A stretch of 63,890 nucleotides of DNA, counting the filler, from Atractiella rhizophila (Eukaryota): NCBI GenBank assembly GCA_021432655.1. It is 5 parts of 5 records of this genome, joined end to end, with 100 filler letters (N's around TTAATTAATTAA, not from the genome) between each part and the next. Parts side by side here need not be neighbours in the genome. Positions count along the whole stretch, not along the records: positions 1 to 17,263 come from MU271877.1; 4 more parts are not named here. One strand, written 5' to 3'. The position numbers and the translations under genes are program-made. The notes beneath the pieces were generated by a model. It saw nothing but the letters and a program-made list of their open reading frames with translations, was not told the origin of the DNA and made no database searches. Shown here in pieces: positions 3,523-60,952 of the stretch. Positions within the stretch are counted from its first letter, which is position 1. Each line of letters starts with the position of its first letter.

Positions 3523-5073
3523 ATGAGCGTTACTTCCCTCAAAAGGAGCCATCCAGACGATTCTTACGACTGTGAACACGCAAGAAAGCGTAAGTCTGTG
3601 CTAAGCAAAATCGCTGGGTTTTTGCGGTCACCTACTGCGTCGTCTTCGAGCTCGTCTGTGGCAACACTCCCGTCTACGGACTCTTATTCCGCTGTCTCCC
3701 TCGTGAGAGGCAGTAGAAAACCGTTGTTTAGCGTCTGGGTGAGTCAAATTGCCCACAGGCGAGACTACTTAATCACTGGCGCGTCCAAGCATCAAAGACA
3801 GCTGCAAAAAGAAGTGTTAGGTCGATATCATGAAGTGATGGGGTCCAAGACCACCACCGCGACGCCCTCCCCAGCAGCTGTCATCGCAGCCTTCAATGTC
3901 GACCTCGGAAGAATGCGAACAGACTATCTAGAGTTGCCTTTGGAGCCGAGCTTCGAGCCTTTTAAGAAGAGACTAGACTCCATTTACCAGGACATGCCAT
4001 GGACCTCTTCATCCGTGTGTTGCTCCTGGACGATACCTTGGTCAATAACGTCAGTGTAGGATTCACTTGCTGAAAAGCTTCAAATCGCTCGTCGAGCTCG
4101 CGATGCTCCACCTCCGAAACAACCCATTCTCCCCGAGTTCCAACGGCTGAGTTTACGATCCAAAGCGCATGATCGGGCATTAAAGGAGAAACGGCGAGCT
4201 TTCAGGGAGAAACTAAGCGATGACGAGGAGGCCCGAGTACAGCAGCTACTGAAGCTTCGCGGGGTAGTGAAAGAGATTCCTGGCGCACAAGTCAGTGACT
4301 CCGACCTTCGCAAATTGTTGCCAGGTCAATGGCTTAATGATGAAGTGGTGAACTTCTACGGGAGTCTTGTCATGTCCAGGAGCAGAGGATCCATCAACAA
4401 GAGTGGGGCAGAGAAGGACTACTACGACGTCCATGTGTATTCAAGTTTCTTCTATTCCAAGTTAACCAGTAAGGCTGGATACGACGGCGTCCGTCGGTGG
4501 ACAAAGAAGGTAGTCCGAGTCCAATCTCCAAACCACTTATCACTAATTATACTGACAGGTCGATGTTTTTTCTAAAGATATCCTATGGATCCCGATCAAT
4601 GTTTGCAATACACACTGGGTTATTGCAGCTATCAACATACGCTTGAAACGCTTCGAGTATTACGACTCCATGGGCCGACAGGATCCTAGGGTGCTCGAAG
4701 TGTGTCTCCCATTCTGCATCCAACGCTTCGTTAACGTAGTTCCAGAACCTTAGATGCTACTTCGAGAATGAACATACGGATAAGAAGGGAGCACCAATAG
4801 ATCTTTCCGAATGGGAGGATTTTTATGATCCTGTGCGCAGGTTTTGATATATGCCATAACTCACTGAAAGGGCTCGTTCAGAATACACCGCAACAAAATA
4901 ACGGCTACGATTGCGGACTGTTCACGAGCATGGTGATGGAATGCCTGTCACGTGTTGGTGGTGTCTTTGATTATGGGCAGCGAAATATGCCGTATCTACG
5001 GAGGAAGATGATATATGAATGTGGTGAGGGAAGATTGATGGAGGAACCACCAAGGAGGATAATATTGGAGTAA
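3523..5073 (+). CDS. ULP1: Ulp1-family SUMO protease (peptidase C48), multi-exon
   Basis: PGQWLNDEVVNFY, SSFFYSKL, YDGVRRWTKK, catalytic HW, YYDS and PQQNNGYDCG motifs. Confidence 0.88.
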
Positions 5074-7551: not shown

Positions 7552-7836
7552 TGTTGGAATAGGTGCTATATTTCATGGTATCGTTGTGTGGTCAGCCACC
7601 TTTGTACGTTCTGTCTACTCACTTCGTAGTTTTACTCCCTAGGGGGAGGGGCTGTCTTGGTGATCATCAATTTTTTAACCACTAACCTATCCCCAGGTCT
7701 ATGTTTTGTTCCCAATCCAATCATCTTTGACCACCAGCTCCCCTATCCAGCATCACATTCTCTTACGGTAACAAGAGCAGTGGCTAGGGATTCACAGATC
7801 AGTTAGAATTGAAATTTTAATTTTGCCATCCACTTG
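7552..7836 (+). mobile_element. Degenerate family-B 5' LTR (7552-7765) with decayed PBS and start of leader
   Basis: TGTTGG start; CGGTAACAAGAGC follows (decayed TGGTAGCGAGAGC); leader matches 16814-16885. Confidence 0.75.
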
Positions 7837-7842
7837 AGGAAT

Positions 7843-8028
7843 GATCTAAGGCTAGGAGTAATTGGTGGACAATGATAAGATATTAGGCTAGTATAGAGAG
7901 GCATATCTAGGGGTAGTTGATGGTCAATGATGAGCACCAACTCCTGGGAAGAACTAAACGATAGACATGGTAATAACTCATAAGAGTCACATGAGGCAGA
8001 TGACCAATAGAGCACATTATAACTAACA
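7843..8028 (-). mobile_element. Truncated LTR (family A)
   Basis: Same orientation as, and similar to, 15390-15588; ends AACTAACA. Confidence 0.75.
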
Positions 8029-9500: not shown

Positions 9501-10184
9501 CCCGCTGTCACACCCTTATTGGGAAAAATTCAAGAAGGGCGAGCAACATGGGCAGCTGTTAGAAGGGCGACTTGATCACCATCATCGGAGAGTTGGTAGT
9601 AGAGAGCACTGCTCCCTTTATATTCAGGTGTGTTGCATCGGAAATACTAAGAGAAAGGGTAGGTCTAAATGACTTGTGAAGCTCAGAAGTAGATGTCATC
9701 TTATGTCCCCAGTGCCTGGTCACCCGTTCACCTATTTGTACTTCCATCACCACTTAGCCCAATTCTGTCTGTTCTCCTCTTATCAAACCCATATAATCCC
9801 ACTGTTGCTTTTCCTTTTTGGTCATGTTTTTTCTACTCTTCTCTACATTTTGTGGCAGTGTTATTCCACTTGTATATAGATTGGAGAGTAGTGGAGGTGA
9901 TCTTAGAGTATCCTCTTAGGTTCATCTCCAATACAGGTGCATCGCCCAGCGACGACGATACATAGTGTCCGCCTTAATAGGAGACAAGAAGAGTAGGTTA
10001 CCGTAGACTTGTGAAAGGCAACTTCAATCTCGGGAAGCTATGTGGGCTAAGGATGCTTTTGATGGCATGGATGGCCGACACGGTGTCCTTGAGAGAGAGA
10101 CTATCGAGCTCTATGCCGATCCACATGAAGAGCAAGCAAAAATGGAGTCTTCTCCCTATTGTTGGCAAAAGCAATGGGATTAAT

Positions 10185-10528
10185 TGCTGGATTTAGCCAA
10201 TTGCACTAAAATGACCAGTCATTCCCAACAGTGCAGATTAACCCTTTATACCCAAGGTTCAACACCCTTCCCTGATCTGTACTGTCTGCAACCACTTTCT
10301 CTGCCACAACCATTTCCTTCCATCATTTATAGTGGGGAAGAGCACCCACTCAACAGTTTTTATAGTGGTTTTCCCCACTCCCACAATATGGCTAAAGTGC
10401 TCAGACAGGGGTTCGAACCCGGGTATGCAGGGTCAGCTCTCGCTACCATGCTGGATTTAGCCAATTGCACTAAAATGACCAGTCATTCCCAACAGTGCAG
10501 ATTAACCCTTTATACCCAAGGTTCAACA
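10185..10528 (-). mobile_element. TRIM copy 1: 344-bp miniature LTR retroelement with identical 80-bp LTRs (10185-10264, 10449-10528) and TSD TTAAT
   Basis: TG...CA LTRs, PBS abutting the 5' LTR, PPT abutting the 3' LTR, TTAAT at 10180-10184 and 10529-10533. Confidence 0.93.
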
Positions 10529-10787
10529 TTAATCAATGTGTGCATCACTTCGAGAGTGTCAAGCTAAGCTTGTAAATTTCCCCTAATCTCAGACCAACAG
10601 TGGTGAATGGGATGTCTGTAGATAAGTCACACCTCATGAATGTACTGCGTTACATCGTCCTCATCTCTTAGACCAGGTAGACCCAGGGACTCTGCTGGAC
10701 AAGCCAAAGAAGTCCGTATAAGTGGCAGAATAATGGGCAGCAAGATCTGTTCCACTCTTGGCATTCTTCTGATTGTCTCCCACTTGA

Positions 10788-10977
10788 TGTAAGGATCTAA
10801 GGTTAGGAGTAGTTGGTGGTCAATAATAAGGCATTGATGAAGTATAGAGAGACATATCTAGGAGTAGTTGGTGGTCAATAATGAGCACCAACACTCCCAG
10901 GCAAAACTAAACTACATAGTGATGAGTCATAAGAGCCATAAGAGACAGATGACCAACACAACACACTACAACTAACA
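10788..10977 (-). mobile_element. Solo LTR (family A) with near-perfect TSD CTTGA/CTTAA
   Basis: TGTAAGG...CTAACA termini; flanks 10783-10787 and 10978-10982 differ at one base. Confidence 0.85.
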
Positions 10978-11457
10978 CTTAAGAGCCTGCATATTGTCCA
11001 GTTCTCTGCTAGAAAATATTTAGAACTGTAGGAGGTGGTCCACCTGGGAGGTTGACACAGACCACAGAAGAATCTGGAGGAGAGCACACTAGAGGCAATA
11101 CAGAGGAAGAAGCTGTATCTGTCGGCTTCTTGTTAGGCGAAGGGGGGACCGGGATGGAAACTTTGATTTGACACATAGAGCCAGTTCATTGAAGGAAATG
11201 GCAACACGGGGTTTCTCAACACCTTCCATCGATCCAAAGAAACTCTAGCCCTGGCTGGTGTACTTTTACCATTTCTTGCCTTTGCTGATAGCACTCCTGC
11301 CTCAGTATGCATCCTCTCCCTCTCCCTATCCTCTCTGTTCCTCTAAGTAGTTATCTTATCCTTAGCTGCATTCATCAAACCAATGTCACTCCATGTAGAA
11401 ATCCCATGCCGTGATCTCAGAACGCATGGAGCCACCAATCCCAGACCTCGTGGTACG

Positions 11458-11575
11458 TGAGAGAAATGGATGGTGGATAGAGCTAGGGGAGGTCAAAGAT
11501 GATGACCGTTTAAACTGTCACCAGGGGGGTAAGGCTACAAAGTAAGTAAACACGACTAAGGTGGCCGACCACAAA
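11458..11575 (-). mobile_element. Partial LTR (family B)
   Basis: Similar to 8984-9150. Confidence 0.65.
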
Positions 11576-11713
11576 ACATCTTCTGTTGAGAGAGAAGGTT
11601 CTTAACATATTGCTCTTGATCCAACCAACTCAGCCATCTGTTGTCCAATCGATTCAAGACTTTGGGATCAAAATCGAGACCCTCCTAAGGCCCACCATTT
11701 TCTACAAAGATCA

Positions 11714-12520
11714 TGTTAGTTGTAGTGTGTTGTATTGTTCATCTGCCTCTTATGACTCTTATAAGTCATCACTACATCTGTAGTTTAGTTCTGCCTTGGA
11801 GCTTTGTCTACTCCTAGGTATGTCTCTCTATACTTCTCTAATGTCATTATTGACCACCAACTACTCTAGCCTTAGATCCTTACATAGTAGCAGGGAGCTG
11901 GTGGCTAGGATTACATTTGGTCACAATTCTCCCTCCTCCAGACCACATTTTCACCCCTCCTGCACTCAAATTTTGCTCAATCTCAATGGATTTGTGATCC
12001 CCAGACATTCCTTTAGCACCTCACAAGGTTTCTGCTTACTCAGGAATCAAGAAACCTTACCACCACCACCTGCCTCAAACGCACTTTGCCATCCTAGACT
12101 CAAACTTTGACCAATTCGGATGTTATAGGGCTCATTTTTATTGTGATACACTGCGCTGCAACTTTACTGGGAACAATCTTGGTCACAACAAATGAAAATT
12201 TCAAGATAGTCACTCCATCACATCCTTTGTACCCCAAATTGCATTTTTAGACTTCTTAAAGTTAAATCTAGTCTGATCTGGACGATTTTATCGCCATTGA
12301 ATTTGCAATAGGCTATTCTACTATCCTATAAAAGGTCACCTTATCAGAAGAGCCAAAATTTTGGGATTTGCCATCATCACATCAGCCCTATCCTCCATCA
12401 CATCAGTGGATCTTAGGACTCAACCACAGGCTATAGAAAGATGTTTGGGATAGAAATGGCTCTTAATGGGTTGGAATTTGCTGGACTGAACAGTCTTGCT
12501 GCAGTAAATGATGTCACTAT
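11714..12520 (+). mobile_element. Family-A 5' LTR (11714-11884), degenerate PBS and about 600 bp of non-coding leader
   Basis: TGTTAG...CTTACA followed by TAGTAGCAGGGAGC; leader is homologous to 14402-15389. Confidence 0.8.
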
Positions 12521-14274
12521 TGTTGGATTAGGCATTATATTTCATGGTCTTGTGTTGTGTGGTCACTCAACTTTGTTGTGTTTGCTCACTTCATAGCTTT
12601 AGCCCCTAGGGGGGCAGTCTAGGCGGTCATCATCTTTGACCACCAATTCCTGTCTGCTAGCTCCATCCAGCATCAGATTCTCTCATGGTAGCGAGAGAGG
12701 TGCTAGGGATTGACAGATCAGTTTTGCCACCCACTTGGTTGAAAATTTTGATCACTCAGCCGTCCGTTGTCCAATAGGTTTGAAACTTTGGGATCATAAA
12801 CGAGACCCCTTACGCCTATGTCTAACCATTTCTACGAAGATCGGACGATCCAAACTCGAATTTTATCACCATGGCCGAAGAAAATAAAGTTTTGATTACC
12901 CCCCTTGGAGAGAAGAACTATGGCACCTGGCGCATTGATATGCAAGCAGAATTGATGAGAAAGGGGTTATGGGAGATAGTCTCTGGAGTGGAGACAAAAC
13001 CAGAAGATTTGAAGGAGCAAAAAACGGTGGCAAAAGGACAGCTCCAAAGCGGCTGGGATCCTGTTCCTTAGCGTGGAAGCGACCCAGAAAGCCCATGTAG
13101 TCCCTGTCCTTCAATATCCAGTCAAGATCTGGTCTACCTTTCAAGACATACACCAACAGGAAGCGCTCCTCAACTCGTTTCACTGCCCTCAACACCCTCC
13201 TTGCCCTCCAGAAGAAGGAAAGTGAATCTCTGATCACCCTGTGTGTCAGAAGCGACCAGCTGCTTCTAGACTTCACCAACACGCTTTCCAAGGACTATTC
13301 CCTTGATGATTTGAAGGAAGATCTCCAATCCTTCGCTCTCATCCGTTCCTTCGGCCCAGAATACGTTAGTTTTGTCCAGAACATCACCCTCATGACCTCC
13401 ACTGACCTGCAATCAATCAAACAAGCGTTCTACTCGATCCAAGCCACCAAGAACTCTGAGGAAGCCATCTCCAACACTCAAATGGCAAATCAGGCATCCA
13501 GCAGCAACAAAGGACGAGGAGTATGGCGTCCCAGAGGTGGTAGGGGTGGAGGAAGAGGTGGAACTCATATTTTTTCGCAACCTGAGTGTAACTACTGCCA
13601 CAGGAAGGGCCACTTCGTCTCCCATTGTCCAGAAACCCCCATTGGACGCAATAGGATCGATCTAGACAAGTACAGGACAAAGTATGGGAAGCTGGAAGAG
13701 GCAAACAAGCTCAAGTGGATGGGGAAGGGCCAGAATTCGCTGGGGAGACCAGCTATGCAGTGGTAGATGATGCCATTAGTCGCCAGAAAGCTGGGACTGA
13801 CTGGCTTATCAATACAGGGGCAACTTCATCAATGACCCTACACCATCAATTCTTCAAATCCTATCAAAAACATGTTGTCCCCATCAGAGTTGCTAATGGA
13901 GAACTGATCTGGTCAACTGGGATTGGAGAGGTGGTAATTGAGGCAAAATTGGAGGATAAAAAGTCGAAGAAGGTCGCCATTCAAGATGTCCTACACATTC
14001 CCAACCTTTGTAGCAATCTCCTATCCGTTTTCAAGCTCACTATATTCAAGAACATGACTGTCACCATCACTGGGAACAAAGTACGCTTCCTCAAGGACAG
14101 AAATCTCTGCTTTACAGCGACATTTGATCACAGGAGAGTATCATCATCGATGGAAGAACACGCATAGCCTCAGAAACTGTTGCACATGCCTCCACTACCC
14201 TCTCAACACTTTCCTATGGCACAGGAGACTTGCCTACTTGAATCATGACGATGTAAAGCGAATGCTGAAGAAAG
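12521..14274 (+). mobile_element. Ty1/copia element (family B): 5' LTR 12521-12685, PBS at 12686, disrupted gag-protease-pre-integrase from 12871
   Basis: PBS TGGTAGCGAGAG; gag NYGTWRIDMQAELMRKGLWEIV; zinc knuckle CNYCHRKGHFVSHC; protease WLINTGATSSMT; LWHRRLAYLN; frameshifts. Confidence 0.92.
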
Positions 14275-15389
14275 CGTTAGTTGTAGTGTGTGATTTAGTC
14301 ATCTGCCTCTTATGACTCACCAACTACTCCTAGGTTTGTCTCTATACTTTTCTAATGTCTCATTATTGACCACCAACTACTCCTAGCCTTAGATCCTTAC
14401 ATAGTAGCGAGAGCTGGTGTCTGGGATTACACTTTGCCACACCCATCACCTTCCTCCTCCTCCAGACCACATTTTCTGTTGAACCTTGGGTATAAAGGGT
14501 TAATCTGTACTGTTGGGAATGATTGGTCATTTTAGTGCAATTGGCTAAATCCAGCATGGTAGCGAGAGCTGACCCTGCATACCCGGGTTCGAACCCCTGT
14601 CTGAGCACTTTAGCCATATTGTGAGAGTGGGGAAAACCACTATAAAAACTGTTGAGTGGGTGCTCTTCCCCACTATAAATGATGGAAGGAAATGGTTGTG
14701 GCAGAGAAAGTGGTTGCAGACAGTACAGATCAGGGAAGGGTGTTGAACCTTGGGTATAAAGGGTTAATCTGCACTGTTGGGAATGACTGGTCATTTTAGT
14801 GCCATTGGCTAAATCCAGCATTTTCACCCTCCCATGTTCAAATTTTGCTCAATTTCAATCGGAACAGATTTGTGATCCTCAAACATTCCTTTACCGCCTT
14901 AGAAGGTTTCTGCCTACTCAGGAATCAAGAAAAATCGAAATCTATCACCTTACCACCCATCTCCCGCCTCAAAATGCACTTTGCCACCCTGGACTCAAAG
15001 TTTGACATATTTGGACGTTATAGGGCTTATTTGGATCATGAAACACTGCGCTACAACTTTACTAAGAACCATCTTGGTCACAATAAGCGAAAATTTCGAC
15101 ATAGACACTCCATCACCTCCTTCATACCCCCAAAAACGCATTTGTCGACTTTTTGAAGTCAAATCTGGTCTGATCTGAACGATTTTATCACCATTGGATT
15201 CACAATAGGCTATTCTACTATCCTACAACAGATCACCTTGATCAGAAGAGTCGAAATTTGCCACCATCACATCATCATCACATCAGCCAGTATCACCCTT
15301 TCTGCATCACATCAGGGGATCTTAGGACTCAACCACAGGGTTTAGGAGGATGTTTGGGATGGAAATGGCTCTTAATGGGTTGGAATTTG
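14275..15389 (+). mobile_element. Family-A 5' LTR (14275-14401), PBS TAGTAGCGAGAGC and leader, inserted in the copia pre-integrase region; hosts TRIM copy 2
   Basis: Homologous to 11714-12480. Confidence 0.8.
14477..14820 (+). mobile_element. TRIM copy 2: 344 bp, LTRs 14477-14556 and 14741-14820, TSD TTTTC
   Basis: PBS TGGTAGCGAGAGC at 14557; PPT AGGGAAGGG at 14732-14740; TTTTC at 14472-14476 and 14821-14825; empty paralogous site near 11938-11958. Confidence 0.95.
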
Positions 15390-16593
15390 TGTAAGGATCT
15401 AAGGCTAGGAGTAGTTGGTGGTCAATAATGAGACATTAGAAAACTATAGAGAGACATACCTAGGAGTAGTTGGTGGTCAATAATGAGCACCAACACTCCT
15501 AGGCAAAACTAAACTACATAGTGATGACTCATAAGAGTCATAAGCGTCATAAGAGGCAGATGACCAAGACAACACACTACAACTAACACTCCCACCTGGG
15601 CAGCTGTCTCTTGATGCTCCCACCAAATCCAGAGAATCTCCCACCAAATTCATACAATGTATACTCGATATAAAGCAGACAGCATATTAGTTTTGCAATG
15701 AAAAGAAGAGGAAAAGTCCTCGTACCGCTTAAAGCGGCGTCTTATAACCCCACAGAGGAGGAAAGGAATTTTATTGCGCCCCATAACTGCCTCAGACACT
15801 TGGGTAGGGGCGCAAACCCATCATAACTCGAAACTTGTCCACGCTGGCGACTGGAAGTGCCTTGGTGAGGAGGTCCGCTGGCATATTGGCACCCGGACAG
15901 AAGACTGGACTGATCTTGCCCATCTCAACAACATCCCTGAGCCAATAAAAACGAAGGTCCAGGTGTTTCATTCGACCATGGTGTTCAGGGTTCTTGGATA
16001 CCTGGAGAGCGCTGCTGCTGTCTGTGAAGAGGGGAGTAGGACCTTGAGGAGTGAAGCCAATCTCTTCTAAAAGATTCCTTAGCCAGACGACTTCTTGACC
16101 TGCTGAGACTCCTGAGACATATTCTGCTTCGGTTGTGGAAAGGGCAACGAGGGATTGCAGTTTGCTGCTCCAACTGACCGCTCCATTGCCTATCTTGAGA
16201 AGATAGCCTCCCGTAGAACGTCCAGTATCCTTGCACCCAGCAAAATCTGCATCGCAGAAGGCGTGAAAAGGTTGCTTGAGGTCGAAACCAGCTGCAGAAT
16301 ACTCGATTCCTAAGTTCTGAGTTCCTTTGAGGTATCGTAGAAGATGCTTGGCCGCTTCCCAGTGCTTCTTTCCTGGGTTAGAGAGGTACTTTCCAAGGAC
16401 AGAGACTGCATGAGCGATATCTGGACGAGTGGATATGGCTAAGTACATCATGGAGCCAACAACGTTGCTGTAAGGGATTGTGCACATTTCTTCTTGTTCT
16501 TCCTTTGTCTGAGGGCAGTCCTGCTTGCTGAGACCGTGTCCAACGTTGAGAGGAGTGAGGACAGGGTTGCAATCGTCCATCTGTTGGCGTTCT
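15390..16593 (-). mobile_element. Ty1/copia 3' part (family A): end of RT plus RNase H (ORF 15792-16580), PPT and 3' LTR (15390-15588)
   Basis: PYSNVVGSMMYLAISTRPDIA, FCDADFAG, ALSTTEAEY, KHLDLRFY, ADLLTKAL; purine-rich GGTGGGAG precedes the LTR. Confidence 0.95.
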
Positions 16594-17263
16594 TGTTGGA
16601 TTAGCTGTTAAATTTCATGGTGTTGTCTTAGTGTGGTCAGCCACCTTTGCTGTGTTTACTCACTTCGTAGTTTTTCTCCCTAGGGGGAAGTCTTGGTGGT
16701 CATCATCTTTGACCACCAACTCCTGTCCCCTAGGTATGTGTTTCCTCATCAATCCTATCATCTTTGACCACCAACTCCTGTCCCCTAGCTCCATCCAGCG
16801 TCTATATCTCTCATGGTAGCGAGAGCAGTGGCTAGGGATTGACAGATCAGTTGGAATTGCAATTTTCAATTTTGCCACCCACTTGGTTGAAAATTTTGAC
16901 CACTCAGCCATCCTTTGTCCAATCGATTCAAGACTTTGGGATCATAATCGAGACCTTCCTAAGGCCCTATCCCCCCATTTCGACGAAGATCAGACGATCC
17001 AAACTCGAATTTTATCGCCATGTCTGAAGAAAATAAAATTTTGATCACCCCCCTTGGAGAGAAGAACTATGGCACCTGGTGCATCGATATGCAAGCTGAA
17101 TTAATGCGAAAGGGGCTATGGGAGATTGTGTGTGGAGAGGAGAAGAAGCCTGTTGATTTGAAGGAGGGAAAGCAATGGGAAAAGGAACGCTCTAAAGCGG
17201 CAGGAATGCTGTTCCTCAGCCTGGAATCCACCCAGAAGGCTCATGTGGTGTCTGTCATTCAAG
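16594..17263 (+). mobile_element. Ty1/copia element (family B): 5' LTR 16594-16813, PBS at 16814, gag from 17020; cut off by the contig end
   Basis: TG...CA LTR, TGGTAGCGAGAGC, gag paralogous to the one at 12871. Confidence 0.92.
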
Positions 17264-17363
17264 NNNNNNNNNNNNNNNNNNNNNNNNNNNNNNNNNNNNN
17301 NNNNNNNTTAATTAATTAANNNNNNNNNNNNNNNNNNNNNNNNNNNNNNNNNNNNNNNNNNNN
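17264..17363. other. Artificial contig linker N44-TTAATTAATTAA-N44
   Basis: Identical 100-bp structure occurs four times; core has stop codons in all six frames. Confidence 0.97.
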
Positions 17364-26545: not shown

Positions 26546-29500
26546 TCAGCCTTGGAAGACATAAATTGTAATGTCTATTATGTCGTTCAGCAGGCATTCA
26601 CAAATGTACAAGGGAACGGGACGTACAAACTACCGCGCCGATGAATCTGATTGCCGCTAATCCAGCCACGGAATAAAGCAGGAAGCTTAGGTACCCATTG
26701 ACTTTTGCGTTCGAGGTTCCCGTTTCGGTAGAGATAGACTGGTTGGCGTCAGTCGACCTATATCAATCATGCACTCTTAGTGCACTCTACCACGAAAATG
26801 ACAAAAACCGCACAGGATCGCAGCGACAAGGGCACCGTTCGTCAATGCCCAAGCGAGGACGACATTCGTACGGATGTTCCGATAAGCATCTTCTATCCGT
26901 GTCGCTTCGTCTATCTTCGTCACTGGGGGAGGAGGCTTGCTTGCTAACACATGTACAGCATCTTCGTAGGCCGCGTCGATGTCCTTTTCTCTCGTTCAGG
27001 GTGATCATCACGGAGAGAGGAATACGCTCACCTCCTTCTCCGTCGGTACAGCCACATCCACAGTGTTGCCCTTCCCTTCTCCTGTTGTCTTTACCACACC
27101 AAGATCCGTCTCGACTTTGTTATCGCCTTTTGTTCCCCATGATACGTCGTGCACGTTACAGAATGCATACCTACGCCACCATTGTCAATATCGGTAAAGG
27201 TGAGAGTAAAGGTCGCACGTGTTGATGACGTTAATCCATGAAGGAGCGAGCAAGATGTACTGGATGAACGAGGTGAACATGTGCCAAGGCTCAAAGAAGA
27301 TCAGGGAAGCGATGAGGTATAGACCGTAAGTTGCCAGGAGAGATATGACAATGTTCCGGAAGATGCTACCCATTGTATCACATCAGGGACACCTCTGGAC
27401 GAAATGGTTGAAGACGAAAGCTCACGTATTAGAGAACACGTCGCTCAGCGAAAAGCTCCCATTATCCTCCTCAATCGCATCTTTTGCATTCTGGATCCCC
27501 TTGAAGGTGATGAAGAAGGCGGCAAAGGTGATGTAGATGGTGATAAATGCATAAGCGACCATTGCGATCGTGAATGACACTTTGCTGCCTTGCGGTCGGT
27601 TCCCCATTGCGAGAAGGAAACAGCCAATAAGTATGCCGATGTAAATGTAGTTGAGGATATCATTGAAGACTTTGATCCAGCCTCCAATACCGAAGGTTTT
27701 GTCTTCTAATGAATTCGAGAGGATATACTATTCCATGTCATCAGCAATGGTGAAAGGAGCCAGGACATTGACTTACAAAAGCGATGTAAAAATTTCCAAG
27801 TGCGAACCAGGAGAATATAAGGTTGAAGACCTGATAGAAGAACTCGACGTGCAGCCAGAACTTGCGGATGAAGGAGTGGTCGGAGCGATAGAGATATCCG
27901 AAATGAGTAACAGAGTGAATAGCGGCGAAGAAAGATCCTTCATAAGTCCATCAAGATGCGACCTCGTGAAATGAAGGGAGAAAACGTACCATTCAGCCAC
28001 CGACGACGTTGAGAGATCAGCTCGGGTACTTGATCAGGTACATCAGTGATGGCACTATCCGAATCTCCTTCAGGACAAGCACCAACTGTTCGAGGTTGAA
28101 AAGAACGCACTAAGCGCTCTTCACGTATCTGAGGACCCAACCACAATTCCTCTTCGACACGAGCTCCCAACACAGAATCCTATCCTCAGCCAGATACATA
28201 TTCTTATCCCAAAGATTGGCGTCCGCATTCGTATGCAGCTTCTCTCCCTTGAAATACTCCTTCAGCGGGCCTTCTCCAAGCTCATTGTTCTGGAGTGCAG
28301 TGTAACGGTAAGCGGAGAAGGCACCGGGTAAGACGGTGATGTATCCGAAGACGGATTCAAGGGGTTTGTCGAGAATGTCTAACCCAGTCACACTCCATCA
28401 AGCAATTGAAGAATGAGGTGGGACCAAACACACTCGAGATCTTGTACTCAAAATTCTGGGCAGCAACCAACGGGTTGATCAAATTCTTCAAGTACCTTCC
28501 CTTGAGAGCGACGATTTCACCACAAGCACCACCGACGTTCGAATTGACATCAAAAGTTTTCCACAGATGATAAATCGATTTCGGTCCCGGCTGCGTTCCC
28601 ACATCGAGGAGGACACAGACGTTGGGTTTGAGTAGGCGACCGAACGCGTTGAAGAACCAGCGATGGGAGTTGATTTTCTTCTGATTCTTCTCTTTCAAAC
28701 AAAACAGGATTTGAATGGGTACTGCTTGGCCTTTCGAGTTTTCGGTGGAGCGGAATTGGAGGGAGGGGTCGACGTAGACTTGGGTCGTGTATTCGTAGAT
28801 GTGTGCGGTTACAGGTTTGGCTTCTCCATCTCTTTCGACTGGACGTCATCCAACAAAGCTTCATCAACAAAACTATGTCGATAAAGAAGGAGAGGGGAGG
28901 CGCACTGATATTCTTTGCTACTCCTTCTTGGTACACCCCCATTCCTGCCAGGACTGACAGAGTGCGCGAATTGATTTTTGATCGTCCATCCGACACAATA
29001 CAGACCACGACCTTGCATTGAAATTGTCACGTTTATGCCTCACGCGTAATTGAAAGATACACACCTTCTTCCATCCATCACTGCCCCAAGTTTTACTCCT
29101 CTCCCTCGTACAAAGGTGTTGAATATTCTTAATGACCCCATGCATCGTCCTCGTAAACAACTCTTCATCTTCATTATACCTAGGGAACAATCAGTCTTCA
29201 GGATTATAGATACAGACACAGAAGCGGCTTACATGGTCATCACGATGAACAACTCGGTGCGGCGTGGCGGGTCGTATAATACTTGGCGAAGGGAATACTT
29301 TTCACTTTCAAAGTCGTCTGGATCACAAGTCGCAGCCGTGTACCTACACAGTTAGCCGACAAGGTCAGCTTCTCGTTTGACGATTCTATCAAGGCAACAG
29401 TGCTGCCATTTGTCACATCGGCGCGCTAACAATGTATAATCAAGAGCAGGCCAATGCTCGAACCTTCCCATCGCCCCAGAACCAGAAATTTAAAAGACAA

Positions 29501-30190
29501 ACCTCATGTGTGTGAATTCCTCCCTCCCTTCTCCTTGCTTAAACTCAACAACTTTCCCGGGACTTTACAATCATAAACGAAGTTTCCATTATACAATTCC
29601 ATCCTCTTCACCGTCTTATACCTCCTAGGCTGCCTCTGCGGTATGCGTCCATACCTCACATTCGATTCCTCGTCTTGTCCATTTCCGCGAAACGCGAATC
29701 CGCCAGGGAAGGGAGGCATGGACATTTCGCTATTATGCAAGAGCGGCGCGTTATCGTCCATATGCACGCCTTGATGGTTATGCGACGACGGCGCGCTGTG
29801 TCTGTTATCGGCAGGATAGGGGAGCTCTGCTTCTCCTGGCGTCTCGAAGGGATTCGGGAGGCCACCGGCACCCGTTTGGTCTGTCGGATGGGTAGAAAAG
29901 CCCGGACCACCGTAGGATACTTCTGGCGCGGCATCGTAGGCTGTATGGCGGGGCGACTGGGGGAGGGGGAGGTGTTGTGGATAGGTGGGCGAGGTTGGCG
30001 AGTGCGGATTGGGATGGGAGTAGTCGTAGTCGCCTCGCAATGGGACTTGCTGGTAGTTGGAGTATGAGGCTTCGGGGTAGTGATGTCCTTGTCCTCCAGA
30101 GATGGGCGGTGGTGACGCTGGGTTGCGCGAGTAGGGATAGGCAGACATGTCGTAGGAGTCCCGCGGTGAGCCGGGGTTGGGATAGGCCAT
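26546..30190 (-). CDS. Chitin synthase (division 1, class I-III type), multi-exon
   Basis: [49 protein letters not shown]; 3' end approximate. Confidence 0.93.
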
Positions 30191-30771
30191 GCTGACGCAG
30201 TGGTGAGTGGTAAGAGGAAGCGGTAGAAGGCAGGTAGGAAGAGCTCTGAGCGTTTATGGTCGTTAAGTGTGTTGAGGAAGCTCCTGACTGGATCCGATAA
30301 ATCCGAGTGTTTGCGAGGGGGAGGTGGAACAAGAGTCAACAACGACACGACTACCATGGCTGGTGCTGGCATTTCGGAGCATGCGTGAGGCGTTTGGTTG
30401 CACAGAACATATTGATGGGTTTGTCGGACCAGTGGATTCATGATCTGGTACGTAGCCAATTGATACTGCAAGCCGCGGAGCATGGAGCCTGGGATACCAT
30501 CCTATAACAACGTCTTCCTTGCATGATTATAGAATATTTAAATTTTTGTTTCATTTGTTGCTGCAGCAAGCTGAATCATTGTGAAGCTGTTGCTGTGTAC
30601 AGTTCAACTGAACGTTCAATCTTCATCTGCATCCTGGTAGTGTCTGTTCTTCGCAAGACTTGAATTAGTTCATTAGCGGGAACATCTACATTGATCGAAG
30701 ATGAAGCATCGATAGGCGAGCTTTGTTCCCATGTTGAAAATCAATAAACAACTTTAGCAACGGCTACTAAG

Positions 30772-34555: not shown

Positions 34556-34655
34556 NNNNNNNNNNNNNNNNNNNNNNNNNNNNNNNNNNNNNNNNNNNNT
34601 TAATTAATTAANNNNNNNNNNNNNNNNNNNNNNNNNNNNNNNNNNNNNNNNNNNN
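34556..34655. other. Artificial contig linker
   Basis: N44-TTAATTAATTAA-N44. Confidence 0.97.
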
Positions 34656-42676: not shown

Positions 42677-44983
42677 TTATTCTGTCATTAAGGGCAAACT
42701 CAGCATCTCATCCTCTTGCTCCATGCTCAACCGGATGCCTCTCTTCTCGCAAACGCCTTTCACCTTCCCAATCCATCTCTCAGGCATCTCCTCATGGTCC
42801 CAATCCCCGAACCTTCGTGTCTGCAAGATTGTCAACTCCTTTAGCGCCGTTAACAAAGGCGTGGTCCTCGTCATTGTCGGCTGTTGAGACGTGGGAAGAG
42901 CGGAGGAAGGGAAACTGGAAGAAGACGAAGAAGACGACCGGGACCCTTCTTGTTTCATCGTTCCATTCAGATGTCCGTTTGGAGGAGGAGGTGTGGGTAT
43001 CTGGAGGGCTGATACAAGGGAGCTCCAGACGAGAGCAGGTTCAAAAGCTCCGTTTGTATTCGGGTTCGCGTTCTCTGGTGGTTCGACCGCCGACAAGACG
43101 TTTCTGAGTGTCAGGCGTCTCAGTGATGTAGAGATGGGGGAGCGCTCTAATTCTTCTACCCATTCCGCACTCGCAAAGACAGAGACAAAGTCCAGATCTT
43201 CAAGTGAGGGAGGGAGGATATGGACTATCCGGTCCATATATCTTCTCGCCGTTTGTGGAGAATACTTGGAGACAACATGTGTGAGCTTTTTGAGTCTATC
43301 ACAGTGCGTGAGGCCGGTGAAGAGGCGGTCAGGGAAGACGGTGGATTCTCGGATGATGAGGGAGGTGAGTTGATGCCCGATGAGGGAGAGGAGGTTTGGA
43401 AAGTTATTGGAGGAGGTGACGATGGAGTGTCCTAGCGTAAGGGATTGGAGGGAGCCTGGGAAGATGTAAAGGCCGTGGAAGTGCGAGTCCACGCCGCTTA
43501 CTCTCGGAAGGAGGATCGTGGCGGGAGACATGATCTTATCTCCCACTTTGAGTTCTTTCAAACCCTTGATACCTCGAATGCACCTCGAAATCAGGTTCCA
43601 GTCCAACGCTCGGATATGTTGCAGATTATCGTTCCTCATGATGTCGGGGGAGCGACGCTCATTCGAGATCGCGATTGACGTGAGGGACGGGAGACCGGAG
43701 AGTGAGACGTCGTGATGGAGGGAGACAAGCATTTGGAGGATGGAAGATTGGTCCCATTGTAGGAACTGGAGGTTATCAAAGCTGGCTAACATCCGTCCAA
43801 AAGAAGGCACGATATCTTTCACACCCTCTTCTTCCTCTCTCCCTTCTCCTCCTTCGTCACTCGTCCGATGAATGGGATCAACGATGTCCACATCATTGAG
43901 CAAGCCCAGAACCGCTGCATGCCCAATAACCATGGCCCTCACCTTCCCTGCGACCTCTTTACACCTCGCCAATGCTCCCAGTCTCCTATTCCCCATGTCC
44001 ACATACAACACCACCTTGAACAAATCTGGGGTGGCCATCTCGCACCAACTCCTACATACAAGGCGTAGGGAGGTGAAGGTGTGGACGAACTCGTTGTGCT
44101 CTTCTAGGGCTGAACCGGAGAGGGCATTGAGGGGAGAGACGGCGTGGTGGAAGGAGGAGGGGTCGTTGGGGACGAAGGAATGGAAGGAGGGGACGAGGAA
44201 GGTCAGGATGTGGAGGAGGAGTTCCGTGGGCAAATGGGAGGGCAGAGGGGGCGGCGCTGGTTCTGGGTCCTCCTCTTCTTCTTCCACAATCACTTCCTGC
44301 TCCCATCGACAAACGTTTTGGCTTTGAACAGGAAAGGACAAGACAGACAGACCTCTACGTTGCCATCAATCACCACTTTCTTCTTCCTCCTCCTCTTCTC
44401 AATCAAGCCCTTCACTCCCCTCCCAACTCCCTTCACAGGGCCAGGGAAAGCGATCGCCAGCGGTGGGATATGAATGAACCTCTTCCCCTTCTCCTTTTCT
44501 CTCTTCTTCTCCTCCTTGTTTGCCTTCTTTTCCTTCTTCTTCGGTGTCATCGTGGGACTCGGAGGAAGATGTTGAGGAGGAACAGTAGTAGAAGTCTACA
44601 AGGAACCGTCCTCTAAGTCGCCGTCCTCGTCCGAAACGAAACTGAAACTCGCTCACCTCCTCCTCTTCCTGTCCATCGCCACCGCCACCACCACTCCCAA
44701 TCCCAATCCCATCCTCTCCCTTCATACCGTCCTCGGTGGGAGCGTCGTCTGTAGAAATAGACGAACGCCGGAGCCATTTTCGGACTTTTGCGCGTGAGGA
44801 GGGTAACGATTTCTTGAGCCTCCTCGGTTCTCTCCCGCCGTCCTTGTCCTTGTCCTTGTCCTTCTCTTTGTCTTTCTTTTGTAACGGCGGCTCAGGCGAG
44901 AGAGGCGGGGTGGGTGGGAGCGGGAAGGGAAGAGTGGGAGGCGGCTCGGAGAGCGATTTGGTGTGGTTTAGAGGTGGACGCAT
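42677..44983 (-). CDS. F-box protein with an LRR-like C-terminal region and a low-complexity N-terminus
   Basis: LPTELLLHILTFL...LRLVCRSWCEMATPDLF; LxxLxL repeats; two introns reconcile the N-terminal frames. Confidence 0.8.
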
Positions 44984-45079
44984 GGAAGGGGAAGCGGTAG
45001 CGGATGAAGTCGAGGTGGATGGGTGATCGATCAGGACGTAGTCGCGCGCTGGCTAATCCATTCGTAGACAGATACGTTT

Positions 45080-46291
45080 GGTTAATCAATATTCTTGCTC
45101 ACACACATTCACTTCGAGAGAGAGATAGACGCACATTCTTCTCAGGCAACACCCTTGCTTTCCGATGACCATCATCACCGACCTCATACTGAGAAGCCTT
45201 CTTCTTCTTTCTCTCCAGCTCCCTCTCCAACTCTCCTCCATAATCCATCCTATATCTCTCCCTAAACTCTCCCAACATCTCTTCCGACCGATTAATGCTC
45301 TCCGTCCACTCCGAGGTCTTCCTCCCCCTCTTTTCCTCCTCAAACACAACCCTTCCCTTCCCCTTCCCCTTTTCTTTTTCCTTGCCCAGGTTGCAATCAG
45401 CCTCCGGAGGACTCGGGAGTGGCTTCGGCGCACTTTTGGGGGGAGGTTTAAGTGGCGGTTTCGGGAAATAAGCCTTCTTCCTCGACTTCACAGTCCCATA
45501 TTCCCCATCTCCAACTCGAGTTCCCATCCCTCTCTCCTCCTCTTCCCTACCCTCTGTGGGAAAATTCGGCACATGCATCGTCGCAGCGAACGGAGATGGG
45601 ACGGTAGGGGAGAGAGGGGGGGAGGAGGGAGGAGAAGCGACGATCCATCCTCTTTGTAACCCTTCTGCTATCCAACGAAATATGTTCGGTTGATCAATAT
45701 TCTTGCTCATACACATTGACTTCATCTCGAGAGAGAAGACAGACGCACATTCTTCTCAGGCAATACTCTTGCTTTCCGATGACCATCATCACCACCATCG
45801 TACTGAGAAGCCTTCTTCTTCTTCCTCTCCAGCTCCCTCTCCAACTCTCCCCCATAATCACTCCTATATCTCTCCCTAAACTCTCCCAACATCTCTTCCG
45901 ACCGATTAATGCTCTCCGTCCACTCCGACGTCTTCCTCCCCCTCTTTCCCTCCTCAAACACAACCCTTCCCTTCCCCTTCCCCATTTCTTTTTCCTTGCC
46001 CAGATTGTACTCAGCGTCCGGAGGACTCGGGAGTGGTTTTGGCGCACTTTTGGGGGGAGGTTTAAGTGGCGGTTTCGGGAAATAAGCCTTCTTCCTCGAC
46101 TTCACAGTTCCATATTCCCCATCTCCAACTCGAGTTCCCATCCCTCTCTCCTCCTCCTTCCTACCCTCTGTGGGAAAATTCGGCACATGCATCGTCGCAG
46201 CGAACGGAGATGGGATGGTGGGAGAGAGGGGAGGGGAGGAGGGAGGAGAAGCGACGATCCATCCTCTTTGTAACCCTTCTGCTATCCAACG
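45080..46291. repeat. Direct tandem duplication, two units of about 600 bp
   Basis: 45080-45678 vs about 45689-46291, highly similar; both end CCTTCTGCTATCCAACG. Confidence 0.93.
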
Positions 46292-51831: not shown

Positions 51832-51931
51832 NNNNNNNNNNNNNNNNNNNNNNNNNNNNNNNNNNNNNNNNNNNNTTAATTAATTAANNNNNNNNNNNNN
51901 NNNNNNNNNNNNNNNNNNNNNNNNNNNNNNN
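51832..51931. other. Artificial contig linker
   Basis: N44-TTAATTAATTAA-N44. Confidence 0.97.
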
Positions 51932-60852: not shown

Positions 60853-60952
60853 NNNNNNNNNNNNNNNNNNNNNNNNNNNNNNNNNNNNNNNNNNNNTTAA
60901 TTAATTAANNNNNNNNNNNNNNNNNNNNNNNNNNNNNNNNNNNNNNNNNNNN
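60853..60952. other. Artificial contig linker
   Basis: N44-TTAATTAATTAA-N44. Confidence 0.97.

Follow-up and report, generated by a model that had tools for sequence, protein, structure and literature searches.

Two independent insertions of a probable 344-bp miniature LTR retrotransposon in the fungus Atractiella rhizophila

Two short, near-identical sequences in the genome of the fungus Atractiella rhizophila raise the question of whether they represent a mobile element in its own right and, if they do, of what moves it. Both lie in the window, by which we mean the whole 63,890-nt stretch of DNA that was analysed, and these two copies were the ones examined at full length. The first-pass annotation had read them as a miniature LTR retrotransposon (TRIM) with two independent insertions, and every structural test, namely the long terminal repeats (LTRs), the primer-binding site (PBS), the polypurine tract (PPT), the target-site duplications (TSDs) and an empty site, supports this reading. 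We consider it very probable that the 344-bp elements are TRIMs whose reverse transcriptase and integrase are supplied in trans by an autonomous element elsewhere, most likely of the Ty1/copia type.

The two copies (Table 1) are inverted relative to each other, align over 347 nt at 99% identity and differ at 4 of 344 positions. Both consist of an 80-bp LTR, a 184-bp interior and a second 80-bp LTR, with an LTR-to-LTR spacing of 264 nt. The LTR ends are of the TG..CA type (TGTTG...CAGCA); the LTR pair is 100% identical over its 80 nt in copy 1 and carries 3 mismatches in 80 nt in copy 2. In both copies a 13-nt PBS, which begins with TGG, the complement of CCA, abuts the 5' LTR at a distance of 0 nt, and a 9-nt PPT abuts the 3' LTR in the same way. 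When the first 31 nt of the LTR were searched across the whole window with up to 3 mismatches, 4 matches were obtained against 0.00 expected from shuffles; these are the four TRIM LTRs, and the window thus holds no solo LTR. Sensitive blastn (word size 7) found no third copy in the window, and there were no further TRIM-like short direct-repeat pairs there besides the two copies.

No frame is open on the sense strand, each of the three being broken by 6-7 stops, and no Pfam family was found in the ORFs across the element, including two antisense ORFs. A stop-free antisense frame that crosses the element was taken as chance; Pfam finds nothing in it, and with the LTRs spaced 264 nt apart, a multiple of 3, it comprises just 88 independent codons. 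An Rfam scan (4227 families, E <= 10) returned one chance-level snoRNA match, at 14.9 bits versus a gathering score of 44, and no tRNA-like, 5S or hammerhead match. The placement of the elements, their LTRs, the PBS and PPT at the inner LTR borders and the lack of coding domains in the interior were all as the first-pass annotation had described them.

Each copy is flanked by its own 5-bp TSD, and the two TSDs differ in sequence (TTAAT and TTTTC). The two copies are alike only as far as the TG and CA element ends, and their flanks are unrelated. The insertion of copy 2 is bracketed by homology within the window, as 11808-11952 corresponds to 14324-14476 and 11946-12480 corresponds to 14819-15389, and the pre-insertion site proposed earlier in the paralogous leader is indeed present with a single TTTTC. 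The TRIM copies are thus two independent insertions with different TSDs, and for copy 2 an empty paralogous target is visible. Contigs of the public runs X1 and X3 also cross the copy 2 target without the element (loose ends at 14476); they fit the consensus of a repeated host family and are therefore counted as additional empty paralogues of the target, which say nothing of polymorphism between strains.

Table 1. Positions of the two TRIM copies, their parts and related features in the window.
Feature	Position	Strand	Basis
TRIM copy 1, whole element, 344 bp	10185..10528	-	alignment to copy 2
Copy 1 5' LTR, 80 nt, TATAAA at LTR positions 15-20	10449..10528	-	repeat family D5
Copy 1 PBS TGGTAGCGAGAGC	10436..10448	-	
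Copy 1 polypurine tract AGGGAAGGG	10265..10273	-	
Copy 1 3' LTR	10185..10264	-	repeat family D5
Copy 1 TSD TTAAT (+ strand), downstream side of element	10180..10184		
Copy 1 TSD TTAAT (+ strand), upstream side of element	10529..10533		
TRIM copy 2, whole element, 344 bp, within leader of a 'P'-type LTR element	14477..14820	+	
Copy 2 5' LTR; two private C>T changes, LTR positions 32 and 47	14477..14556	+	
Copy 2 PBS TGGTAGCGAGAGC	14557..14569	+	
Copy 2 post-PBS segment, element 94-135, complementary to 14706-14766	14570..14611	+	
12-nt palindrome GGGTTCGAACCC within copy 2 post-PBS segment	14585..14596	+	
Copy 2 interior end, PPT and first 26 nt of 3' LTR, element 230-290, predicted to pair with 14570-14611	14706..14766	+	
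Copy 2 polypurine tract AGGGAAGGG	14732..14740	+	
Copy 2 3' LTR; one private A>C change, LTR position 63	14741..14820	+	
Copy 2 TSD TTTTC, left	14472..14476		
Copy 2 TSD TTTTC, right	14821..14825		
Paralogous empty site CCAGACCACATTTTCACCC, single TTTTC	11938..11956	+	
Truncated copia element, PBS identical to TRIM PBS	16814..16826	+	
Same truncated copia element, LTR and gag	16594-16813 (LTR); 16963-17319 (gag)	+	

The family had also been taken to be young, and this was not established. The LTRs of copy 2 differ at 3 of 80 positions (K2P 0.039), and LTRs of 80 bp date insertions too coarsely for the family to be called young; the identical 80-nt LTRs of copy 1 likewise bound its age only loosely.

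The anatomy suggests how such an element might move. Transcription would begin beyond the TATAAA box of the 5' LTR, and the RNA would terminate within the 3' LTR. A tRNA, probably the initiator methionine tRNA (predicted 3' end ...GCUCUCGCUACCA), would anneal through its 3' end to the PBS and prime minus-strand DNA, the PPT would prime the plus strand, and reverse transcriptase and integrase would be provided in trans from elsewhere in the genome, presumably by a copia partner. ARAGORN found no tRNA genes in the window. The helper is most likely of the Ty1/copia type because the window contains copia fragments with the same PBS and because of an integrase that makes 5-bp duplications. The 13-nt PBS also stands directly after the LTR of a gag-bearing copia element, a version with 1 mismatch occurs at 12686, and the 5' terminus TGTT(G/A) is common to the LTRs of the TRIM and the local copia elements. 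The local copia copies are 5' fragments, comprising LTR, PBS, gag, zinc knuckle, protease barrel and a pre-integrase stub. Scans for RVT and rve domains were negative for all 116 window ORFs that reach 110 aa and for 100 shorter ones from 4.5-17.8 kb, and no autonomous partner was found among the ORFs scanned. The partner, if copia, must be elsewhere in the genome. The earlier proposal of mobilisation by the local copia elements is partly supported, through the PBS, the LTR terminus and the 5-bp TSD; nothing else is shared and the local copies are truncated.

The 42 nt that follow the PBS form an imperfect inverted copy of a stretch made up of the interior end, the PPT and the initial 26 nt of the LTR, to which they are complementary almost throughout, and they hold the 12-nt palindrome, which resembles a tRNA T-arm or B box. 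From this complementarity a 38-bp panhandle can be predicted in the TRIM RNA, which would join the PBS region to the PPT/U3 junction. It is a doubtful proposal that the panhandle, together with the palindrome at its centre, might act as a cis signal for dimerisation, packaging or reverse transcription of this 344-nt, protein-free RNA by helper proteins. In Ty1 (CYC5/CYC3) and in Ty3, with its bipartite PBS, distant 5' and 3' parts of the RNA pair near the PBS. The pairing in the TRIM would likewise be long-range, 5' to 3' and near the PBS; it differs from the Ty1 and Ty3 cases in that it is predicted from sequence alone, has 38 bp and spans the PPT and the start of U3.

The palindrome bears on a different account, in which the element is a Pol III-driven TRIM of the 'TRIMp3'/Helenus kind and is transcribed from a tRNA-derived promoter rather than a TATA box; the last third of the LTR would supply a loose A box, and a perfect B box would follow 16 nt beyond the PBS. 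The sequence GGTTCGAACCC fits the B-box consensus GGTTCGANNCC, whose matches in the 63.9-kb window fall in the TRIM copies only (4 on both strands versus 0.47 expected), although this motif was selected after inspection of the sequence. At LTR positions 57-67, approximately 53 nt upstream of the B box, TAGTGCAATTG fits a loose A-box form, the match being picked by eye, and the interior has no TTTT run. Helenus families are recorded from Agaricomycetes in the available part of Kojima 2024 (PMC10886601), and the present element resembles Helenus/TRIMp3 as described there in its fungal host, 5-bp TSD and small size. However, Helenus is defined in that text by a tRNA-like sequence inside the LTR, not one that spans LTR, PBS and interior. 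None was detected in the TRIM LTR, the T-arm/B-box-like palindrome in the interior being the sole tRNA-like motif, and this is also explained as a piece of the inverted copy of the LTR start. Neither the zero tRNA count from ARAGORN nor the Rfam scan favours a tRNA-derived promoter, and we regard Pol III transcription as improbable.

A further possibility is that the TRIM is no separate family and arose by internal deletion from the neighbouring 'Q' copia or 'P' element. The PBS is identical, the LTRs start with TGTT in both, and some TRIMs are deletion derivatives of autonomous elements, Copia-9_PGr being an example in the accessible portion of PMC10886601. Against this, once the PBS had been removed, the interior did not outscore shuffled sequence in comparisons with 7 local LTR/leader segments (Q and P), and the LTR reached z <= 1.8 throughout against the same segments. 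Over all of these local alignments z ranged from -0.5 to 1.8, and 20-239 of 300 shuffles were equal or better. With nothing in common beyond the PBS, a derivation from either neighbour is very improbable.

The arrangement could also be explained with no mobile element, as a 264-bp unit duplicated 1.3 times that reached its second place through segmental duplication; LTR-interior-LTR is formally a 1.3-copy tandem repeat, and just two copies were seen in full. This account is close to refuted by the end of homology between the copies at TG and CA, the different 5-bp duplications, the visible insertion-free target and the location of PBS and PPT exactly at the inner LTR borders. We give virtually no credence to a retrozyme or a Cassandra/Ajax-type element. 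Its general layout would be alike (small, non-coding and LTR-bounded), but its LTRs would carry a hammerhead ribozyme or a piece of 5S rRNA, and the Rfam scan contained neither.

The TRIM reading is in keeping with elements known from other hosts. TRIMs of plants were reportedly described by Witte et al. in 2001. They share with the present element short terminal direct repeats, a PBS, a PPT, a 5-bp TSD and the lack of coding capacity; the host here is a fungus, and the likeness is drawn from anatomy, not from sequence. The PBS TGGTAGCGAGAGC is, we assume, not of the plant initiator-tRNA form, and the string had no match in a full-text literature search. Plant TRIMs stay below 1 kb in more than 77% of cases, and the shortest has 233 bp with 52-bp LTRs, according to the text available from Gao et al. 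2016 (PMC4717578), which places 344 bp within the size range of plant TRIMs given there; the same text records partners as mostly not identifiable, with none for 278 subfamilies versus 11 with one. SMART, a 292-bp LTR retrotransposon of grasses (Gao et al. 2012, PMC3281118, as far as the excerpt extends), is similarly extremely small, at approximately 300 bp, and is likened to the present element by size and type only, being a grass family. The first-pass annotation had called TRIMs much less described in fungi than in plants, a fair statement, although TRIMs of fungi have been published. In the portion at hand of Castanera et al. 2017 (PMC5689174), TRIM-classed non-coding LTR elements are given for 3 of 5 Boletales genomes, one of which, for instance, has 576 copies from 93 families; as presented there, these entries are pipeline classifications without published anatomy. 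TRIMs of fungi with 5-bp TSDs and a PBS in common with copia elements are likewise known already (Kojima 2024, PMC10886601, in the part available), and the present element therefore adds a member to a known class.

Parts of the TRIM were present in contigs of all 4 runs compared, one of them with a different flank; runs with small shares were left out of this comparison and were not counted as evidence of habitat. The organism-labelled run X3 yielded a 179-nt contig of the interior with 0 differences, and the soil metagenome X4 also contained the interior, the contigs of X3 and X4 being at 99-100% identity. A root RNA-seq run (X7) gave a 228-nt contig across 14560-14787 with 2 differences, for which contaminating DNA is a possible source. 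In run X1 a 434-nt contig ended in 72 nt of the LTR; its remaining 362 nt were not placed on the window flank, which points to another context of the TRIM in that organism. Contig depth cannot bear a TRIM copy number or an LTR-to-interior ratio. A scan of JGI metagenomes with the first 22 nt of the LTR gave 0 matches. The 7 loci matched there by the LTR end plus PBS (19 nt) were rejected as chance, the DNA being unrelated and having no further similarity to the TRIM.

Taken alone, the TRIM is of minor importance: it adds a further small parasite to a nest of broken retroelements, and its class is already counted by fungal TE pipelines. It is a cleanly bounded example in which the TSDs, the empty site, the PBS and the PPT can all be read, and it is of use for the annotation of this genome, where such elements are easily overlooked or taken for tandem repeats. 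A length of 344 bp is close to the minimum that an LTR retroelement needs. If the panhandle reading were true, the TRIM would comprise a minimal complement of the cis features that LTR retrotransposition requires in a fungus, and if diverged relatives proved to have kept the panhandle, the element would offer a compact substrate with which to study the RNA features recognised by a copia-type helper.

Two near-identical 344-bp elements, proposed in the first-pass annotation, were confirmed at 10185-10528 (copy 1, minus strand) and 14477-14820 (copy 2, plus strand). A repeat search aligned the entire units as an inverted match of 347 nt at 99% identity, and base-by-base comparison showed that they differ at 4 of 344 nt (element positions 32, 47, 148 and 327). 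In both copies the LTRs are spaced 264 nt apart. The same comparison bore out the identical LTRs of copy 1 and the three LTR mismatches of copy 2. At each mismatch the remaining LTR of copy 2 has the base of copy 1, which makes these three changes private to copy 2. Position 148, in the interior, is counted as a copy 2 change only by assuming that copy 1 is unchanged, since two copies cannot assign it. With as many as 3 mismatches allowed, the 31-nt LTR start was found four times in the 63.9 kb (0.00 expected from shuffles), and blastn with a word size of 7 found no further LTR or interior pieces in the window.

The LTR termini read TGTTG...CAGCA in both copies. The PBS (TGGTAGCGAGAGC) lies directly 3' of the 5' LTR and the PPT (AGGGAAGGG) directly 5' of the 3' LTR. 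The flanking duplication is ATTAA on the element strand of copy 1 (TTAAT on the plus strand) and TTTTC at copy 2; the TG...CA ends, PBS, PPT and both duplications had been given in the first-pass annotation and were confirmed in the sequence. The LTRs, TG...CA ends, PBS, PPT and flanking duplications support the assignment of both copies as TRIMs, with all structural hallmarks of the class present and complementarity of the PBS to a tRNA putative. The PBS implies a predicted primer tRNA ending in ...GCUCUCGCUACCA with an A1:U72 acceptor pair. This 3' end and pair are the pattern of the eukaryotic initiator tRNA and of Ty1/copia PBSs. ARAGORN detected no tRNA genes in the window. Rfam searches of the TRIM gave no tRNA, 5S or hammerhead match, even at E <= 10, and identity with Helenus (TRIMp3, which carries a tRNA-like sequence in its LTR), Cassandra, Ajax or a retrozyme was therefore rejected. 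One antisense frame is stop-free across all 344 bp of both copies. This is probably due to chance, because the 264-nt LTR spacing holds both LTRs in one frame.

Homology between the copies stops at the element borders, their flanks are unrelated and their flanking duplications differ, which supports two independent insertions, as first suggested. Copy 2 resides in repeated sequence, with 11808-11952 matching 14324-14476 at 84% on the left and 11946-12480 matching 14819-15389 at 80% on the right. The paralogue reads ...CCAGACCACATTTTCACCC..., with TTTTC once only, confirming that the pre-insertion site is visible in the paralogous leader. In X1 and X3, public runs of which X3 is organism-labelled, contigs run from 14476 directly into ACCCCTCCTGCACTCAAATTT... 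without the TRIM. These empty sites are other family members and not an orthologous empty allele, because their sequence is that of the paralogue and not the diverged flank of copy 2.

Between ~5.5 and 17.4 kb the sequence is a nest of debris from LTR elements, in which two families, P and Q, were distinguished. Q is a copia element with the LTR TGTTGGATTAG...TCTCA, followed by the TRIM's PBS at 16814 or by a 1-mismatch form at 12686. Both Q copies are truncated; a P LTR at ~14272 cuts the first one short. Across LTR, PBS, leader and gag the similarity of the two is ~81-87%. P is an LTR family of ~200 bp (TGTTAG...CTTACA) with five copies or fragments in the window. After two of the P LTRs come a PBS-like TAGTAGC... 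and a leader; one of the leaders contains copy 2 of the TRIM, and both stop at the same point (12480 and 15389), which in unit B is directly adjoined, without a TSD, by a P LTR in inverted orientation. All X1 and X3 contigs covering 14403 carry G there, and thus the PBS of the P family is also TGGTAGCGAGAGC. Summed contig depth for P k-mers was by far the highest in run X1. Possibly P, too, is a non-autonomous LTR element. Origin of the TRIM as a deletion derivative of P or Q was rejected, as its interior, minus the PBS, scored no differently from shuffles when compared with each of the 7 P and Q segments tested; the TRIM LTR against the same 7 was in the shuffle range too (top z 1.8, 20/300 shuffles equal or better).

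Features recorded in the window and their coordinates
Feature	Position	Details
19-bp tandem repeat AGATTATTGGCATGTAGCG	849-1000	~6-8 units
Copy 1 direct repeats	10185-10264/10449-10528	80 nt, 100% identity (repeat search)
Copy 2 direct repeats	14477-14556/14741-14820	96% over 81 nt (repeat search)
Antisense ORF over copy 1	10184-10567 (+)	no Pfam family
Antisense ORF over copy 2	14363-14848 (-)	no Pfam family
P LTR	7830-8028 (-)	
P LTR	10787-10977 (-)	solo; TSD matches 4/5 (TTAAG/TCAAG)
P LTR	11714-11885 (+)	
P LTR	14272-14402 (+)	
P LTR	15390-15590 (-)	
P leader	11886-12480	~600 bp, non-coding, without Pfam match
P leader	14403-15389	~600 bp, non-coding, without Pfam match
Q, first copy	12520-14270	LTR - PBS - DUF4219 - copia gag - zinc knuckle - Pol beta-barrel - pre-integrase stub
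Q, second copy	16594-17319	truncated
N-run pair	17264-17307 + 17320-17363	
N-run pair	34556-34599 + 34612-34655	
N-run pair	51832-51875 + 51888-51931	
N-run pair	60853-60896 + 60909-60952	

The N runs, eight of 44 each in four pairs (352 N in total), have their first three pairs ~17.3 kb apart and the last 9 kb on; the first pair splits gag in the second Q copy. Bordering the nest, three successive ORF pieces at 4060-5070 (+) give matches to the catalytic domain of the Ulp1 protease (Peptidase_C48) over profile positions 1-75, 79-140 and 159-207, and this locus is either an intron-split or a frame-shifted gene. The window also codes for a chitin synthase (28360-30253) and for BING4/WD40, transketolase, CRAL-TRIO and TCTP pieces, which mark the host as a fungus. 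The closest Atlas clusters of a long F-box ORF are mostly from Basidiomycota, a lead only. A direct duplication at 45072-46036 (~300-350 nt, spacing 608-614 nt, 89-94% identity) lies inside long ORFs adjoining an F-box-like gene at 42677-44365.

A TATAAA box occupies LTR positions 15-20. Transcription would start mid-LTR past this box and end in the 3' LTR, giving a short R; a tRNA would prime at the PBS, the plus strand would be primed from the PPT, and proteins would be supplied in trans. Mobilisation by the local copia elements had been proposed, and the PBS is indeed the same, but the partner was not established: among stop-to-stop ORFs, no RVT or rve domain was found in the 116 that measure 110 aa or more across the window, nor in 100 ORFs of 50-109 aa at 4.5-17.8 kb. 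Our best guess for the helper is a copia element, based on the common PBS, the 5-bp TSD and the PBS regions that published fungal TRIMs share with copia elements (PMC10886601). One root RNA-seq run yielded a 228-nt contig that spans 14560-14787 with 2 differences from the TRIM; this is a weak hint of transcription, as DNA can occur in such libraries. A 214-nt soil-metagenome contig (X4) reads interior end, LTR, PBS and interior start, joining 14716-14787 to 14524-14665 and so going back 264. A tandem TRIM array (L3I2), a one-LTR circle or an assembly-graph cycle would give this junction.

The putative TRIM RNA (14524-14795) folds at -94.6 kcal/mol, compared with -77.7 +/- 4.6 for shuffled sequences (z -3.66; 0/200 as stable). 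At the core of the fold, element positions 94-135, directly after the PBS, pair with 230-290, which comprise the interior end, the PPT and LTR positions 1-26. This duplex has 38 pairs, three of them G-U, and reaches -49.6 kcal/mol (-24.5 +/- 3.8 shuffled), a value attained by 0/1000 shuffles of either arm; its antisense strand gives -41.6 kcal/mol. The first arm contains a 12-nt palindrome, GGGTTCGAACCC, that fits the tRNA B-box consensus, and all four matches to this consensus in the window (0.47 expected) fall within the two TRIM copies. The duplex and palindrome could be a cyclisation or packaging stem, a dimerisation palindrome, the relic of a Pol III promoter, or a neutral outcome of aberrant reverse transcription. 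Covariation cannot choose among these readings because there are just two nearly identical copies.

Ages were calculated with a fungal rate taken from PMC5689174, 1.05e-9 per site per year. The LTR pair of copy 2 (3/80 differences, K2P 0.039) gives a nominal age of ~18 My, and 4 changes in 344 nt give ~11 My. With 1.68e-7 expected differences per year, 0/80 differences in copy 1 exclude only ages above ~18 My at the 95% level. The family therefore cannot be called young, and that part of the first-pass annotation was not established. Two of the three private LTR changes in copy 2 are C>T, and the interior G>A, if copy 2's, is C>T on the opposite strand; this bias may reflect faster decay in silenced DNA.

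TRIMs of 233-1000 bp are known from plants, as are tandem TRIM arrays, with partners mostly unidentified (PMC4717578), and an element of 292 bp has been reported from grasses (PMC3281118). Among fungi, 113 Helenus families are reported from rusts, and some more from Agaricomycetes, with copia-like PBSs and 5-bp TSDs (PMC10886601); TE surveys of Boletales count TRIMs (PMC5689174), and TRIMs are mentioned for several other fungal genomes. The 344-bp element, compared with published families by description only, adds to an already described kind of TRIM and is of modest interest.
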